A stretch of 64,000 bases of DNA from Coraliomargarita sp. (GTDB taxonomy: Bacteria; Verrucomicrobiota; Verrucomicrobiia; Opitutales; Coraliomargaritaceae): NCBI GenBank assembly GCA_965216325.1, contig OZ244160.1:2176001-2240000 (forward strand). Reading direction: 5' to 3'. This document shows, one piece after another, positions 45,086-51,206 of this stretch. Below the pieces are notes generated by a model, which saw only the letters and a list, made by a program, of their open reading frames with translations, did no database searches and had not been told where the DNA came from. The position numbers and the translations under genes were made by a program. Each line of letters begins with the position of its first letter. Position 1 is the stretch's first letter.

Positions 45086-46138
45086 CTAGCTGAACAGTGG
45101 AGCCAATTCGGTGTGTGCCTGCTTGATGATCTGCTCGGTGGTCTCCCAGTCGATACAGCCATCGGTGATGGAGACGCCATACTTGAGGTCTTCAACGGGT
45201 TGTGGGAAGCTTTGGTTGCCTGCATTGATGTTGCCTTCGATCATGGCGCCGATGACGCTCTTGTCGGTGAGGCTTTGACGGACCAGTTCTTGGAAAACTG
45301 CAGGCTGGCGCGCGGGGTCTTTGGAGCTGTTGGCGTGGCTGCAGTCGATCATGATGGCCGGAGTGAGGCCTGCGGACGCGAGTTTTTCACGCGCTTCAGC
45401 AACGTCATCGGCGCCGTAGTTCGGGCCCTTGGAGCCACCGCGGAGCACGATGTGGCAGTTTGGATTGCCGCTTGTGGTGATTGCGTTGGCTTGGCCCTGG
45501 TTGTCGATGCCGAGGAAGGTTTGTTCTTGGCTGGCAGCCTTGATCGCGTTGATCGCGACGCCAAGGCCGCCATCGGTGCCATTTTTAAAGCCGAGCGGCA
45601 TGGAGAGGCCGGAGGCCATTTGTCGGTGGGTCTGGCTCTCGGTGGTGCGGGCGCCAATTGCGGACCAGCATACCAAGTCGGCAATGTATTGCGGTGTAAT
45701 GGGGTCGAGGAGCTCGGTCGCGGTTGGCACGCCGAGGTCAATGACTTCCTTGAGAAAGCTGCGTGCGATACGCAAACCGGCTGGGATGTCGCTGGTGCCG
45801 TCGAGCTTTGGATCCATGATTAGCCCCTTCCAGCCTACTGTGGTACGTGGCTTTTCGAAGTAAACGCGCATTACCAAAAGCATGCGGTCTTTAACCTCTT
45901 CGGCGAGCTTCGCGATTTTTTGGGCGTATTCGCGTCCAGCTTCGAGATCATGGATGGAGCATGGGCCGACTACAACCAGCAGGCGACGGTCGTCACCAAA
46001 AATGATCTTGTTGATCGCTTCGCGGCTTTCGGCGACAAATTTTTGGGCGGCTTCTGTTTTTTGAATCTCCTCGCAGAGCGCAATTGGAGAGGGAAGCAGC
46101 GTCTTGGATGTAATATTGATATCGGTGACAGTTTTCAC
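45086..46138 (-). CDS. DAHP synthase, class I-alpha (AroF/G/H)
   Basis: GPCSIHD, RVYFEKPRTTVGWKG, AIGARTTESQTHR, FKNGTDG, IDCSHANS, SITDGC. Confidence 0.95.
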   Translation of the reverse strand: MKTVTDINITSKTLLPSPIALCEEIQKTEAAQKFVAESREAINKIIFGDDRRLLVVVGPCSIHDLEAGREYAQKIAKLAEEVKDRMLLVMRVYFEKPRTTVGWKGLIMDPKLDGTSDIPAGLRIARSFLKEVIDLGVPTATELLDPITPQYIADLVCWSAIGARTTESQTHRQMASGLSMPLGFKNGTDGGLGVAINAIKAASQEQTFLGIDNQGQANAITTSGNPNCHIVLRGGSKGPNYGADDVAEAREKLASAGLTPAIMIDCSHANSSKDPARQPAVFQELVRQSLTDKSVIGAMIEGNINAGNQSFPQPVEDLKYGVSITDGCIDWETTEQIIKQAHTELAPLFS

Positions 46139-46204
46139 AGTGCGCGATCTGTAAGGCACAGATAGTGAGGGAACAAGGCAGAAGTTTGCTCTTCTTTGGG
46201 GGTG

Positions 46205-46288
46205 AGTGGTCAAATTTGACCACTTGTCATGCCAGAGTCATATTTTTCATAAAATCTCGGGATATTTCAAATTGGCATGGTGGGTGCT
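46205..46288 (+). promoter_or_regulatory. Perfect 20-bp palindrome and sigma54-type promoter upstream of amtB
   Basis: AGTGGTCAAATTTGACCACT (46205-46224); TTGGCATGGTGGGTGCT with GG-N10-GC (46272-46288). Confidence 0.65.
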
Positions 46289-46383
46289 TGGGTGGACCCA
46301 GATTCGTATTTAGTCGAATCACCAATCGAGCCGCAAGGCTCAGGACTCAACAACACATATATAAAAACCTAACACAACTAATC

Positions 46384-47826
46384 ATGAAGATTAAACAATA
46401 TCTACTCGCGCTGCTGCTAGGCTGTGTCGCTCTATTTAGTGCGTCGCCTGCAGTTGCAGAAGAAGAGGTCGATGAAGCGGCTGTTGCTGCTGCGATTGAA
46501 CTGTCGCTTGCGCCTGCGAAGGCTGCAGCTGCAGCTGGTGACGGTAACGCTGCCGATTATATCGCAATGGTCGAAGAGCAAGGTTTGGGTGCATACGCAT
46601 TCGACTTCTTTACGATCTCGATGCTCTGGACAGTGATCGCTGCTGCTTTGGTGTTCGTTATGCACCTTGGTTTCGCAACGCTTGAGGCTGGTCTGACGCA
46701 GTCCAAGAACACTGTTAACATTCTGTTCAAGAATGTATTCATTATCTGCATCGGTCTGCTTACATACGCTGCGGTTGGTTTTAACACTCACTACCCATGT
46801 GGCTCTTGGATCATCGAGAACGTGCTCGCTCTTAATGGACCACTTGGTGCTGGCAATGTGGACGACACTTGGGGCTACGGTGGCCTTAGCTTGGCAATGA
46901 CCGGCTATGGTGACTTCATCTTCCAGGCGATGTTCGCTGCAACTGCGGCTACGATCGTTTCCGGTGCGGTTGCTGAGCGTGTTAAGCTTACAAGCTTCAT
47001 GATTTTCGCTACGCTTCTTGTAGCATTTGCTTACCCAATGGTTGGTGCATGGCACTGGGGTGAAGGCTGGTTGAACCAAATGGAAAACCCATTCTACGAC
47101 TTCGCTGGTTCGACTGTGGTTCACGCGTTCGGTGGTTTTGCCGCTCTCGCTTGTGTGATCGTTCTCGGTCCACGTGCTGGCAAGTATGTTGACGGTCGCA
47201 TCAAGCCGATCCTCGGCCACAGCATGCCGCTTGCAACTATCGGTGTATTCCTCCTTTTCCTCGGTTGGTTCGGTTTCAATGGTGGTTCCGTTCTTTCCGC
47301 GAACCCAGCTGGTGTTGGTCTTGTATTTGTAACAACTGCTCTCGCGGCAGCTGCTGGTGGTCTTGCTTCCATTATCGTATCCTGGAGTTTCCTCAAGAAG
47401 CCTGACCTCTCCATGGCATTGAATGGTATTCTTGCCGGTCTGGTTGGTATCACAGCTGGTGCTGACGCAATGGGCCCATGGGCTTCTGTGATCGTCGGTG
47501 CAATCGCCGGTGCGATCGTTGTTTTCTCCATCATCTTCTTCGACAAGATCAAGATCGACGATCCAGTCGGTGCGATCTCTGTTCACGGTGTATGTGGTAT
47601 CTGGGGCACACTTGCAGTCGCGTTCTTCGGCGGTGCTAGCTTTATGTCTCAGCTTATCGGTGTGGTTGCTGTTTCTCTTGCAGCTTTCATCTTCTCCATC
47701 GTCGTATTCGGCCTGCTCAAGGTTGTCATGGGTGTGCGTGTCTCTCCTGAGGAAGAAGCTGAAGGCCTCGATATCGGTGAGCACGGTCAAGAAGCATATC
47801 CTGACTTCGCTGGTAGCGCTCGCTAA
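46384..47826 (+). CDS. amtB: Ammonium transporter
   Basis: FQAMFAAT, SGAVAER, DFAGSTVVH, GWFGFNGGS, IDDPVGAISVHG, GLD..EHG. Confidence 0.95.
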   Translation: MKIKQYLLALLLGCVALFSASPAVAEEEVDEAAVAAAIELSLAPAKAAAAAGDGNAADYIAMVEEQGLGAYAFDFFTISMLWTVIAAALVFVMHLGFATLEAGLTQSKNTVNILFKNVFIICIGLLTYAAVGFNTHYPCGSWIIENVLALNGPLGAGNVDDTWGYGGLSLAMTGYGDFIFQAMFAATAATIVSGAVAERVKLTSFMIFATLLVAFAYPMVGAWHWGEGWLNQMENPFYDFAGSTVVHAFGGFAALACVIVLGPRAGKYVDGRIKPILGHSMPLATIGVFLLFLGWFGFNGGSVLSANPAGVGLVFVTTALAAAAGGLASIIVSWSFLKKPDLSMALNGILAGLVGITAGADAMGPWASVIVGAIAGAIVVFSIIFFDKIKIDDPVGAISVHGVCGIWGTLAVAFFGGASFMSQLIGVVAVSLAAFIFSIVVFGLLKVVMGVRVSPEEEAEGLDIGEHGQEAYPDFAGSAR

Positions 47827-47858
47827 TCCGCCAAGCCAATTAACCATCAACCATCTAA

Positions 47859-48209
<351 letters not shown>

Positions 48210-48248
48210 GCTTCTCGGACTCAAACATTACTCTCTTCTGAGTCCACT

Positions 48249-48282
48249 GCGGTCATCCCTTCGGGGGTGGCCGCTTCTTTTT
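48249..48282 (+). terminator. Intrinsic terminator after amtB-PII
   Basis: GCGGTCATCCC-TTCG-GGGGTGGCCGC followed by TTCTTTTT. Confidence 0.8.
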
Positions 48283-48447
48283 GCAGGCCATCTTGCTCCT
48301 ACTCAAAATGGCGGAGGGGATTACGATTAAGAGTAGGATTATGATTAAGATGTGAGTGCAGGCGCATCTGCGCTACACCTTGAATTGTTTACCTGAATTT
48401 TTTTCAAAAAGGTGGAACTCTTCTTGGGGAGTGCTGACTACCATAGC

Positions 48448-48548
48448 ATCAACCGTGGGTTGAATCATTTTTTCATATGAGTTAGTTAGGGTAACTAAGG
48501 TTAGCAGTGAGCCTCGTCTTCAATAGGAGTCGGGGCTCTTTGTTTTTT
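48448..48548 (+). ncRNA. Candidate sRNA copy 1 (ECF-sigma promoter)
   Basis: GGAACT-N16-GACTA promoter, 5' hairpin TCAACC/GGTTGA, terminator GAGCCTCG..CGGGGCTC-TTTGTTTTTT. Confidence 0.65.
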
Positions 48549-48663
48549 GTGAGCTCGCTTGATGGTTGGCGGTCAATGCATAGCGCTTGTGGGCTGGATG
48601 TATGTCCTTCGAGTTTGTGTAGAATTTTTGGAACTCTTTTGCTGGGGCGCTGACTACCGTCGT

Positions 48664-48764
48664 ATCAACCGTGGGTTGAATCATTTTTTCATATGAGTTA
48701 GTTAGGGTAACTAAGGTTAGCAGTGAGCCCCGTCTTCAATAGGAGTCGGGGCTCTTTGTTTTTT
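48664..48764 (+). ncRNA. Candidate sRNA copy 2 (ECF-sigma promoter)
   Basis: Same architecture as copy 1; spacer diverged while -35/-10 and transcribed part are conserved. Confidence 0.65.
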
Positions 48765-48827
48765 ATGAGCTCGCTTGATGGTTGGCGGTCAATGCATAGC
48801 GCTTGTGGGCTGGATGTTGGGCTTCTA

Positions 48828-48908
48828 TGTGAATAAACGCGCTCCTCGATTTGAGAAACGCGTTATTGGGGTGGACCGGGGGATAGCCGATCCGAGGACT
48901 AAGAAGTT
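48828..48908 (-). ncRNA. Candidate sRNA 3 (ECF-sigma promoter, convergent)
   Basis: GGAACC-N16-GTCTA at 48942-48916, C-rich middle, terminal hairpin AACGCGTTTCTC/GAGGAGCGCGTT-TATT. Confidence 0.5.
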
Positions 48909-49210
48909 GCTAATGTAGACCATTAGCTGAGGCTAAGGTTCCATATTCGAATACGAAAATGCCCTCGAGGGGCGGGGCGATTAAGGGGCTTGAAGCTGTA
49001 TTAAAGCTATATGTTTGGTGTCATTAGGTTGGCGGGCAGGTTCCTGTCGATCTGTGGACTGCCGATGCCTGAGTTGAGTTTAATGTCGACGGGGCTGAGT
49101 TCGATGTGTGGCTCATTGGCCGCCAGTTCGGATGTCTCTATTGGCTCGTCGACGACTGCTTCTGGGCTAAAGGAAAATTCAATTACCACGGGTGCTTTGG
49201 AGAGTGTGCT

Positions 49211-49879
49211 CTATAGGCGCTTGAGGTATTTTTTATCGTTCTTGTCGATGAAGAGCACGCGCTTGTCTTGGATGATATAAACTTTAAGTCCAAGGCTGTA
49301 GTTGACGGTGTCACCCACGCTGTAGGCGTCGTCGTTGAGCAGGACTTTACTTTCGGTGCCTGAGAGGCGCACGCCGGAGATGCTGACCTTGCTGAGCCAG
49401 TCGATGATTTTTGGGTCGGGCTGGGCGGCGGCTTTGCGTGCAGCTTCCTCTTCGGCTGCTTTCTTGGCGGCGGCTGCGGCGAGTTCGGCTTCTCGTTGGC
49501 GTGCCGCTTCTGCCTCTGCCGCTTCACGTGCGCGCTGGAGTTCAGCGAGCACCTTGGGCGATTCTGCGGGGGTGAGTGGTGCGCTGATGGTTGCTGCGGG
49601 TTCTGCGGGTGCGCTCTCTTGTGGCTTGGCTTGCGCGGTGTTGATTGCTGGTGCCGGTTCGGCAATGGGCTCTTCCTTGAGTAGCATGACCGCAAGGACG
49701 GCGATCAGTCCGAGCATGACGGCGAAAGCCGCGACGAGTCCAAGTGTCAGTCCCATGTTCGGGCCTCGCTTAGGGCTGGGCGGTGTTGAAATGGTGTTGC
49801 TGCCGGAAAGCGATGGTGATGAGGGCGCACTGCTGCGGTCGCGTTGGGCCTTTTTGAGGGCTTGGTTGATCAGGCTCAT
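49211..49879 (-). CDS. GspB/ExeB-like protein
   Basis: [15 protein letters not shown]-terminus, TM, C-terminal VLLND..Y.VGD; downstream of exeA. Confidence 0.75.
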
Positions 49880-49998
49880 ACTGGGAGTGAGAGTAAAAGT
49901 GGTCGTGAGGGTGGTTCAGGGTGTTGGCTGTTGGTGGAGTAGCAGTCTCGCCTGAGCCTTCTCTGTTGCTGTGAACACAGGCGGGGCGCCTGTGCTAC

Positions 49999-50823
<825 letters not shown>

Positions 50824-50900
50824 GGTGAGACGGAATCTTCTGAGCTTATTGGGAGATTACCCTTTTCAAGTGTGTGGAAATGGCTTCTTTATCGGTGCGA

Positions 50901-51206
50901 ATGCCGAAGGATTCTGCACAGAAAAAAGAGCGCGTGCTCCTGCTGATGATGCTGGGGGTGTTGATTGTGTTGGTAGTGTTTTTTAGCAGTCTCATTTTGC
51001 AGACGCATCGTGAATACAAGCACTTTAAGGAACGAGAAGCTAGGATTGAGGCTAAGCTCACTCAAGCCCGAAAAGAGTTCGAACAGAAAGAGGCTTATTT
51101 GGCGAGTATGTTGGAAGATCCTGAGTTTCTCGAGCGTGTGGCTCGCGAGCGGCTTGGATACTCACGTCCGGATGAAATGCTTTTTCGCTTCGAGGACGAA
51201 CCCTGA
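50901..51206 (+). CDS. Septum formation initiator (FtsB/DivIC family)
   Basis: TM, coiled coil, DPEFLERVARERLGY.RPDE. Confidence 0.85.
   Translation: MPKDSAQKKERVLLLMMLGVLIVLVVFFSSLILQTHREYKHFKEREARIEAKLTQARKEFEQKEAYLASMLEDPEFLERVARERLGYSRPDEMLFRFEDEP

Follow-up and report, generated by a model that had tools for sequence, protein, structure and literature searches.

Which RNA is encoded downstream of the glnB gene in Coraliomargarita sp., and does it act as a general silencer of translation starts? The stretch analyzed here (the window, 64,000 nt) corresponds to G000:C1:2176001-2240000 of a single-contig 3.06-Mb genome (G000), and positions without a prefix are those of the window. A sequence-only reading of this stretch had singled out the letters ATCATTTTTTCATATGAGTTAGTTAGGGTAAC as the seed of a small RNA (sRNA) that is antisense to the start regions of many genes and could silence outer-membrane proteins. 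We found that these letters, which had been quoted correctly, are located at 48464-48495, inside copy 1 of a head-to-tail pair of ~100-nt sRNA-like genes (48413-48601 and 48629-48817; period of 216 nt), although the site had been treated as a single one. The minus strand carries a third, diverged paralog at a distance of 32 kb (G000:C1:2256711-2256812). The site is very likely an sRNA gene, and its family is conserved and so far undescribed. As for function, we give roughly even chances to a family-specific, trans-acting, selectively base-pairing sRNA that depends on an extracytoplasmic function (ECF) sigma factor and is encoded by the two tandem copies and the third paralog. In this genus, its leading candidate target is ctaC, and it does not act as a general silencer of porins at their start codons.

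The tandem sRNA genes and their conserved core

Both units combine a two-box promoter, a 5' hairpin, a core and an intrinsic terminator, as listed here with the number of members aligned by a covariance model (CM) where it applies:

48413..48601, plus strand: repeat unit 1, comprising promoter, sRNA copy 1 and a 52-nt tail; reference copy of direct repeat family D1
48414..48418, plus strand: GGAAC, ECF-type -35 box of copy 1; the same in both copies, with 6 of the 11 copy differences in the -35/-10 spacer
48434..48439, plus strand: CTGACT, -10-like element of copy 1, after a 15-nt spacer behind GGAAC; fixed family spacing
48449..48463, plus strand: 5' hairpin of copy 1, UCAACC-GUG-GGUUGA (6 bp), from folding; also in the genus orthologs G001a and G002a
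48464..48480, plus strand: genus-specific segment AUCAUUUUUUCAUAUGA, the anti-start part of the sequence-only reading; conserved in G001a and G002a only
48481..48504, plus strand: core GUUAGUUAGGGUAACUAAGGUUAG, conserved in the family and the putative seed; nearly invariant among the 35 CM-aligned members, which represent ~15 genera
48509..48548, plus strand: intrinsic terminator of copy 1, with a GC-rich stem at 48509-48538 and the U-run UUUGUUUUUU at 48539-48548
48629..48817, plus strand: repeat unit 2, 94% identical to unit 1; CM score of 87.4 bits
48630-48634 and 48650-48655, plus strand: -35 box and -10-like element of the unit 2 promoter
48665-48679, 48680-48696, 48697-48720 and 48725-48764, plus strand: hairpin, anti-start segment, core and terminator of the unit 2 RNA

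The two copies differ at 11 positions, none of which falls within 48448-48513, in GGAAC or in CTGACTACC. Besides the six in the promoter spacer, three differences lie near the inferred start site, one lies after the U-run and one in the terminator, where a G-U pair is changed to G-C. Since the boxes and the RNA are kept while the spacer diverges, this is the pattern expected for a two-box promoter driving a constrained RNA. The duplication is specific to this genome; the related genomes G001 and G002 carry single copies at the equivalent locus. The only small open reading frame (ORF) on the plus strand is ATG-AGT-TAG, and minus-strand ORFs of 31 and 54 amino acids (aa) lie in the variable 5' part.

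Within the same GTDB family, our search with a CM built from 19 distinct members matched 70 of 101 genomes, spread over 15 of 20 genera; among 144 other genomes of the order it gave only three weak matches (~29 bits). Relatives were found by blastn in 12 of 36 genomes of the family, and scanning one representative genome of each prokaryotic species for the exact pattern gave 16 stretches, all titled as Coraliomargarita, Coraliomargaritaceae, Puniceicoccaceae, Opitutales/Opitutia or Verrucomicrobiota. An Rfam cmscan of 46000-51000 on both strands, with E-values up to 10, gave no matches (MicA RF00078, RybB RF00111 or any other), the paralog loci gave nothing relevant in Rfam, and a full-text literature search returned no account of this RNA, nor of regulatory RNAs in Verrucomicrobiota.

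The part held constant across the family is the G/U-rich, 24-nt core (GUUAGUUAGGGUWANUWAGGUUAG), within which the block tgaGUUAGUUAGGGUuAa-U-wAGGUUAG is almost invariant in the 35-member alignment. The preceding segment is not shared in this way: UUUUCAUAUGA is kept only in the genus-level orthologs G001a and G002a, the UUUUUUCAUAUG part is genus-specific, and most members have UUUUU-CAGUGA (or CAUUGA, CAAUGA, CCAGUG) where this genus has the anti-start segment. In those members the CAGUGA-type bases pair with an upstream UCACUG-type arm, forming the loop and 3' arm of the 5' hairpin, and both arms co-vary (CACUGG/CCAGUG, UUGAU/AUCAA; read from the CM alignment), with a family-mean unpaired probability of 0.66-0.83 for the U-run and 0.18-0.39 for the next six bases. 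In copies 1 and 2 the ancestral hairpin appears, from the predicted folds, to have decayed to a 4-bp UCAU/AUGA helix, with a new hairpin sitting upstream, and UUUUUUCAU is therefore predicted to be open.

Folding of the three paralog RNAs gave z-scores of -4.4, -4.8 and -4.6 relative to dinucleotide shuffles. The consensus fold leaves the core unpaired, has the terminator as its sole structure (12 pairs, with compensatory changes at 8) and shows no alternative anti-terminator pairing. In the minimum free energy fold of copy 1, UUAGUUA/UAACUAA of the core (48482-48488/48492-48498) form a 7-bp A-U-rich hairpin next to the 4-bp UCAU/AUGA helix, with unpaired probabilities of 0.07-0.29 in the core arms and at least 0.95 for UUUUUUCAU, which is open in copy 2 as well. 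The description of this site as a single-stranded core thus fits UUUUUUCAU but not the core arms of copy 1. Taken over the family, the locus has the features generic to trans-encoded sRNAs, namely its own promoter, an intrinsic terminator and a conserved unstructured seed. A terminator scan also flagged the 5' hairpin and the following AUCAUUUUUU as terminator-like (48449-48463 and 48665-48679), so that some transcripts could stop before the core.

The ECF-type promoter and its candidate sigma factor

The -35 box is as conserved as the RNA that it precedes. GGAAC is invariant in 19 of 19 aligned members and stands 56-78 nt 5' of the core in 35 of 35 CM matches, always after A/T-rich sequence, and (T/A)C(T/C) follows at N18/19, often within GTGTTC or CGTTCT. 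A GGAAC -35 box with a short -10 element at fixed spacing is the promoter type of ECF-dependent sRNAs. The start site of copy 1, inferred rather than mapped, would be at about 48443-48447.

ECF sigma factors are autoregulated and recognize GGAAC-type -35 boxes. The genome encodes eight Sigma70_r4_2 proteins. By inspecting the region 5' of the sigma gene at G000:C1:2063954-2064553, we found GGAAC-AAATCTAAGGTTTCAA-CGATCT 49 nt upstream of its start, and 28 of 30 orthologs carry GGAAC(AAATCTAAG...CGATCT), of the CG(A/T)TCT type, 44-57 nt upstream of theirs. The protein passes the ECF superfamily model (106 bits versus a cut-off of 42.9 bits), it fits SigW and RpoE best among the named models (each under its equivalog cut-off), and its identity across the family is 74-95%, leaving aside one match of 34%. 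A 230-aa ORF at G000:C1:2064553-2065245, which overlaps the sigma gene downstream and matches no family, is a plausible anti-sigma factor. Two genera, g17 and g20, gave no match either by the sRNA model or by the sigma query. From the promoter motif shared between the two loci, we infer that this SigW/RpoE-like sigma factor transcribes the sRNA.

Other promoter readings fared worse. Inspection by eye led us to reject a sigma-54 reading of TGGAAC..TTGC: in copy 2 the distance between GG and GC is one base too short, copy 1 lacks GC, and relatives do not keep the motif; a sigma-70 scan of 48100-49100 gave no promoter-like sites. Scanning AT-rich intergenic DNA for GGAAC gave 108 sites, which is too noisy for defining a regulon. 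As a separate observation, G000:C1:1735635 (minus strand) carries GGAAC-N15-CTGACT, with boxes and spacing as in copies 1 and 2, and an ORF of 188 aa (MKQQHPTSLQ..) that lies 40 nt 3' of this site could belong to the same ECF regulon.

Predicted targets and their controls

By ranking 2235 genes by RNAduplex energy, we found that the top target is the gene at G000:C1:1184004, which has a GTG start and pairs at -36.4 kcal/mol over -27..+8 (CGCUGACUUACCCUGACUAACCAAACUGUGAAGAAG), compared with an average of -29.7 +/- 2.0 kcal/mol for the minima of 15 shuffled sRNAs. This gene comes first for the full region, the copy-1/2 core and the paralog-3 core alike, and its product (Pfam COX2 and Cytochrom_C) is cytochrome c oxidase subunit II, encoded by ctaC. 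Relative to shuffled leaders, the z-scores of the ctaC pairing are -4.2 to -5.2 in G000, -3.7 to -5.7 in G002 and -2.2 to -3.0 in G001; in G015 the score is -2.5, at a different position. These predictions suggest that ctaC is a good candidate target in this genus, which leaves the family-wide invariance of the core unexplained. Among the ctaC orthologs (L035-L062), a GTG start (GTG-AAG-...) appears to be conserved in most family genomes examined.

The sequence-only reading had instead proposed broad pairing with translation starts. Its descriptions of individual leaders hold: both porins (57432, a Pfam BBP2 porin, and 58717) read ..ACT-ATG-AAA-AAC, which gives nine contiguous pairs with UUUUUCAUA, P-II (47871) reads GAT-ATG-AAA and gives eight, and the amtB and pilin leaders are as quoted there. 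The leaders are also poor in G and in Shine-Dalgarno (SD) motifs (G fraction of 0.12-0.20 at -30..-1; SD-like 4-mers in 192/2235 leaders versus 270/2235 coding sequence (CDS) windows). Broad pairing itself was not borne out, as shuffles of matched composition fit the leaders just as well as the conserved core does. Words of the core complement in -40..-1 of the 2235 genes number 92 for 7-mers (shuffles 97.8 +/- 14.2), 21 for 8-mers (25.9 +/- 6.4) and 6 for 9-mers (6.8 +/- 3.0). The corresponding counts in CDS windows are 19, 3 and 2, and this ~5-fold excess in leaders is a matter of base composition, because the core complement is G-free and the leaders are G-poor. Genome-wide, exact or G-U-tolerant complements are mostly the antisense of GUUAG-rich elements in 3' untranslated regions (UTRs), not leaders.

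The anti-start segment does show an excess, with matches of 9 nt or longer at the start of 47 genes versus 17.4 +/- 8.2 for shuffles (1/500 shuffles), which arises because CAU and the U-run meet ATG-AAA-AA (43 genes start ATGAAAAA). The predicted enrichment of exported proteins was likewise found in the counts: 24 of the 47 matched genes have signal-peptide or transmembrane-like (SP/TM-like) N-termini, assigned by a crude rule, versus 409/2235 (18.3%; Fisher p = 2.7e-7). It is, however, a general property of MK(K/N) starts; since 112 of 249 ATGAAA starts are SP-like, the enrichment restates how common such starts are in exported proteins.

These counts, together with the predicted openness of UUUUUUCAU in copies 1 and 2, are the main points in favor of an sRNA whose open UUUUUUCAUAU pairs with (U)AUG-AAA-AA of MKK/MKN signal-peptide mRNAs, porins included, and silences them in envelope stress. 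An ECF promoter paralleling that of the sigma-E-dependent MicA and RybB would fit as well, as would the slightly lower duplex energies of SP-like genes (-16.48 versus -16.03, p = 0.023), but SP-like genes make up only 12 of the 50 best-ranked predicted targets. The expected helices are weak and consist of A-U pairs only (9 bp in the porins, -5.5 kcal/mol; 8 bp in P-II, -4.8; the full 11 bp, -7.5), with no Hfq or ProQ found, and the RNAduplex ranks among the 2235 genes are low (porins 1839 and 2020, P-II 1132, amtB 1326, pilin 913). Over -150..+100, shuffled sRNAs pair equally well with the two porins in 12/60 and 53/60 cases and with P-II in 17/60. Moreover, the segment is conserved in the genus only, and the CAGUGA, CAUUGA or CAAUGA found elsewhere lies in a hairpin. 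The sequence-only reading had itself held that pairing no better than that of shuffled controls would count against it, and this is what we found for the porins; by prediction, repression of outer-membrane mRNAs at their start regions is not expected. Broad anti-start-codon pairing and porin silencing are weakly supported at best, and we consider them quite unlikely. A predicted pairing with amtB (-29.2 kcal/mol at +28..+90, 0/60 shuffles), which requires an internal loop of 17 nt, was given no weight.

Several results also weigh against a selective base-pairing sRNA. The 2235 genes were called by a simple procedure of codon usage and a position weight matrix, with approximate starts, and RNAduplex takes no account of target accessibility. 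Over -40..+20 windows, the mean energy of the 46-nt region is -16.11 kcal/mol versus -15.74 kcal/mol for CDS windows, and the core alone gives -13.41 kcal/mol for leaders versus -13.88 kcal/mol for CDS windows. Compared with 15 shuffled sRNAs, the effect over all leaders is modest (mean -16.11 versus -15.09 +/- 0.68; 40 genes at or below -25 versus 20.5 +/- 9.9), and for each of these two measures 1 of the 15 shuffles was as good. Within two mismatches, the core complement occurs 113 times in 41 family genomes, antisense strands of the sRNA genes themselves included, versus 335 times for a reversed-pattern control, and no family-wide target was found that would explain the invariant core. The ctaC pairing is not significant in eight genomes of other genera, where z ranges from +0.8 to -1.4 (+0.8 to -0.4 in G010, G007, G026, G064 and G028; -0.84 in G062; about -1.3 in G014 and G063), and its conservation within the genus may reflect low divergence, the ctaC proteins being 95% identical. 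The core of this copy can, according to the predicted fold, close into its 7-bp hairpin. The genome (99.98% complete, less 24 kb) yielded no match to Hfq (PF17209), ProQ or CsrA (PF02599), and Hfq-assisted pairing is thus not indicated. Finally, the sole RNA-library contig on the sRNA genes (X1, 181 nt) connects the 3' half of copy 1 with the 5' part of copy 2 through a different spacer, of 20 letters instead of 51; it may come from DNA or read-through, and is evidence neither for nor against transcription. RNA runs X6-X8 (four runs in all) gave no contig on the locus.

The library result would also suit inert intergenic DNA that was recently duplicated and carries its motifs by chance. Conservation in 15 genera, the invariant core and -35 box, and the covarying terminator make such an absence of function hardly credible.

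A near-invariant stretch of 24 nt for which no complementary target was found across the family is also what might be seen if the RNA were a decoy, in which GUUAGUUAGGGUU...AGGUUAG binds an RNA-binding protein and titrates it from mRNAs bearing the motif. Two similar AGG(G)UUA units lie within the core, a same-sense near-copy (GUUAGUUAGGGUUGACCUCAGGUUAA) lies between rpsD and rpoA, and GUUAG-repeat elements stand before terminators after hsp20 and other genes. The decoy nevertheless lacks a candidate protein, as the CsrA, Hfq and ProQ models found nothing, and the loops do not carry the repeated GGA of CsrB/RsmZ-type sponges. In addition, the rpsD-rpoA motif was seen in this genus only, and GTTAGTTAG is not over-represented genome-wide (13 found versus 18.6 expected). 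We regard a decoy as unlikely.

The motif-bearing sites are described here in their own right. Between rpsD (S4) and rpoA, at L160:907-935 (G000:C1:2595206-2595234, plus strand, outside the window), GTTAGTTAGGGTTGACCTCAGGTTAA has 13 identical bases plus AGGTTA, and the complement word TCAACCCTAACTAAC, the equivalent of this motif, also occurs in G001 and G002. At L095:347-448 (G000:C1:2694546-2694647, plus strand, outside the window), 3' of the Hsp20 gene, a long hairpin is followed by GUGAGUUAGUUAGGUUAGUUAGCUAGUUAGGGUUGAAGG and then by a terminator-like stem; with a weak CM match (29.5 bits) and no GGAAC box seen, this element could be a fourth, diverged paralog or a 3'-UTR element. GUUAG/UUAG repeats stand directly after the stop codon and before terminator hairpins at L097:284-380 (G000:C1:2020533 onward, plus strand), G000:C1:1799080 (minus strand) and G000:C1:2123235 (plus strand). 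Of these three genes, one ends in ..YEF and one encodes a DUF11/DUF4842 protein, and the 4-nt period sets UAG in successive frames.

Genomic contexts, proposed mechanism and related systems

Upstream, the sRNA pair is set off from its neighbors as follows:

46384-47826: amtB, upstream of the sRNA pair
47871-48209: glnB (P-II), just upstream of the sRNA pair
48249-48274, plus strand: intrinsic terminator of the amtB-glnB operon, an 11-bp stem followed by a T-run, which divides the operon from the sRNA genes

At 48300-48350, between the glnB terminator and copy 1, lies a dispersed repeat with a hexamer period (units GATTAA/GATTAC/GAGTAA, often in inverted pairs), which was matched by an RNA-library contig; the same repeat occurs at L095:460-545 and at many other sites of G000, where GATTANGATTANGA has 130 occurrences versus 0.24 expected from composition.

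The downstream context varies over the family. In most genera, and for the third paralog of this genome, a co-oriented gene follows the element at 45-130 nt and encodes a conserved protein of ~310-410 aa (N-terminus MSD..KPPKLKLxR, no Pfam family), with a DUF3568 lipoprotein gene next. This arrangement speaks for a cis-acting leader or attenuator, in which the element would be the 5' part of a co-oriented operon transcript and the terminator would set read-through. Other members, however, precede a gene for a 482-aa MKW.. protein or an FtsB-like gene, and copies 1 and 2 have no co-oriented downstream gene at all, facing a convergent pair that encodes a 222-aa membrane protein and an AAA_22 ATPase. 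With at least three downstream contexts, the element does not always precede the same co-oriented gene, as a cis-acting leader would. The terminator is strong and comes without a visible anti-terminator, and it is hard to see why a leader would be duplicated in tandem. The contexts, the strong terminator and the tandem duplication thus favor an independent sRNA gene, and a leader appears quite unlikely.

For the selective base-pairing sRNA, the following mechanism can be proposed. The ECF sigma factor of SigW/RpoE type (2063954-2064553), with its putative co-encoded anti-sigma factor, would be freed under envelope or membrane stress and would then transcribe the ~100-nt RNA, consisting of the 5' hairpin, the ~24-nt G/U-rich conserved core and the intrinsic terminator, from the GGAAC-N18/19-(T/A)C(T/C) promoter. 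The core, whose complement is G-free, would pair with a restricted group of mRNAs whose leaders are C/A-rich and SD-less, and pairing just upstream of and over the start codon would block initiation. In this genus, the core and the U-run/CAU extension together would form a near-continuous duplex on ctaC over -27..+8, with the GUG start included. There is a small chance that the RNA goes further and is an Hfq-independent ECF envelope-stress sRNA native to Verrucomicrobiota, with a G/U-rich seed tuned to the G-free SD-less leaders of this lineage and, evolved in addition in this genus, an open UUUUUUCAU extension that clamps the initiation region of ctaC (-27..+8) and gives a weak graded affinity for MK(K/N) signal-peptide mRNAs; it would then be a MicA/RybB-like circuit reinvented for SD-less initiation.

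MicA, RybB and MicL are sigma-E-dependent sRNAs of Enterobacteria. Like them, the present family consists of short RNAs with an ECF-type promoter of their own (GGAAC -35), an intrinsic terminator and a 5'-proximal conserved unpaired region, the gene of the sigma factor itself has the same promoter type, and a lowering of envelope or membrane protein synthesis by pairing at translation starts is plausible. Unlike them, it shows no sequence or structure homology (0 Rfam matches), comes from a genome in which no Hfq was found, would act on SD-less targets, and is limited to one family of Verrucomicrobiota; porins are not among its predicted targets, and its leading candidate, ctaC, encodes a respiratory protein of the inner membrane. 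The likeness to MicA and RybB suggested earlier therefore extends to the ECF-type promoter and the circuit logic, but not to family membership or to the predicted targets.

PrrF1/PrrF2, AbcR1/2 and OmrA/B are tandem or multi-copy sibling sRNAs. As in these systems, near-identical copies lie next to each other, each with a promoter and a terminator, the seed is the same between siblings, and a diverged paralog is found elsewhere; those RNAs differ in having other regulators (Fur and others), unrelated sequences and Hfq dependence. Bacteroidota such as Bacteroides thetaiotaomicron have SD-poor mRNAs, no Hfq and mapped sRNAs, and offer a parallel for base-pairing regulators that work without Hfq on mRNAs mostly without SD motifs, although they belong to another phylum and share no homology with the present RNA, which is known from its sequence alone. 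We know of no ECF promoter for Bacteroidota sRNAs.

If the family instead binds a protein, its invariant 24-mer would be a ready-made bait. If the selective base-pairing sRNA holds true, the conserved sRNA, its recognizable ECF promoter and the conserved sigma/anti-sigma locus would together provide a rare and tractable entry point. In an organism without detectable Hfq, ProQ or CsrA and with SD-less mRNAs, it would allow a direct test of antisense blocking at SD-less starts, and it would show whether the use of an ECF sigma factor and an sRNA to lower membrane-protein load arose independently outside Proteobacteria.

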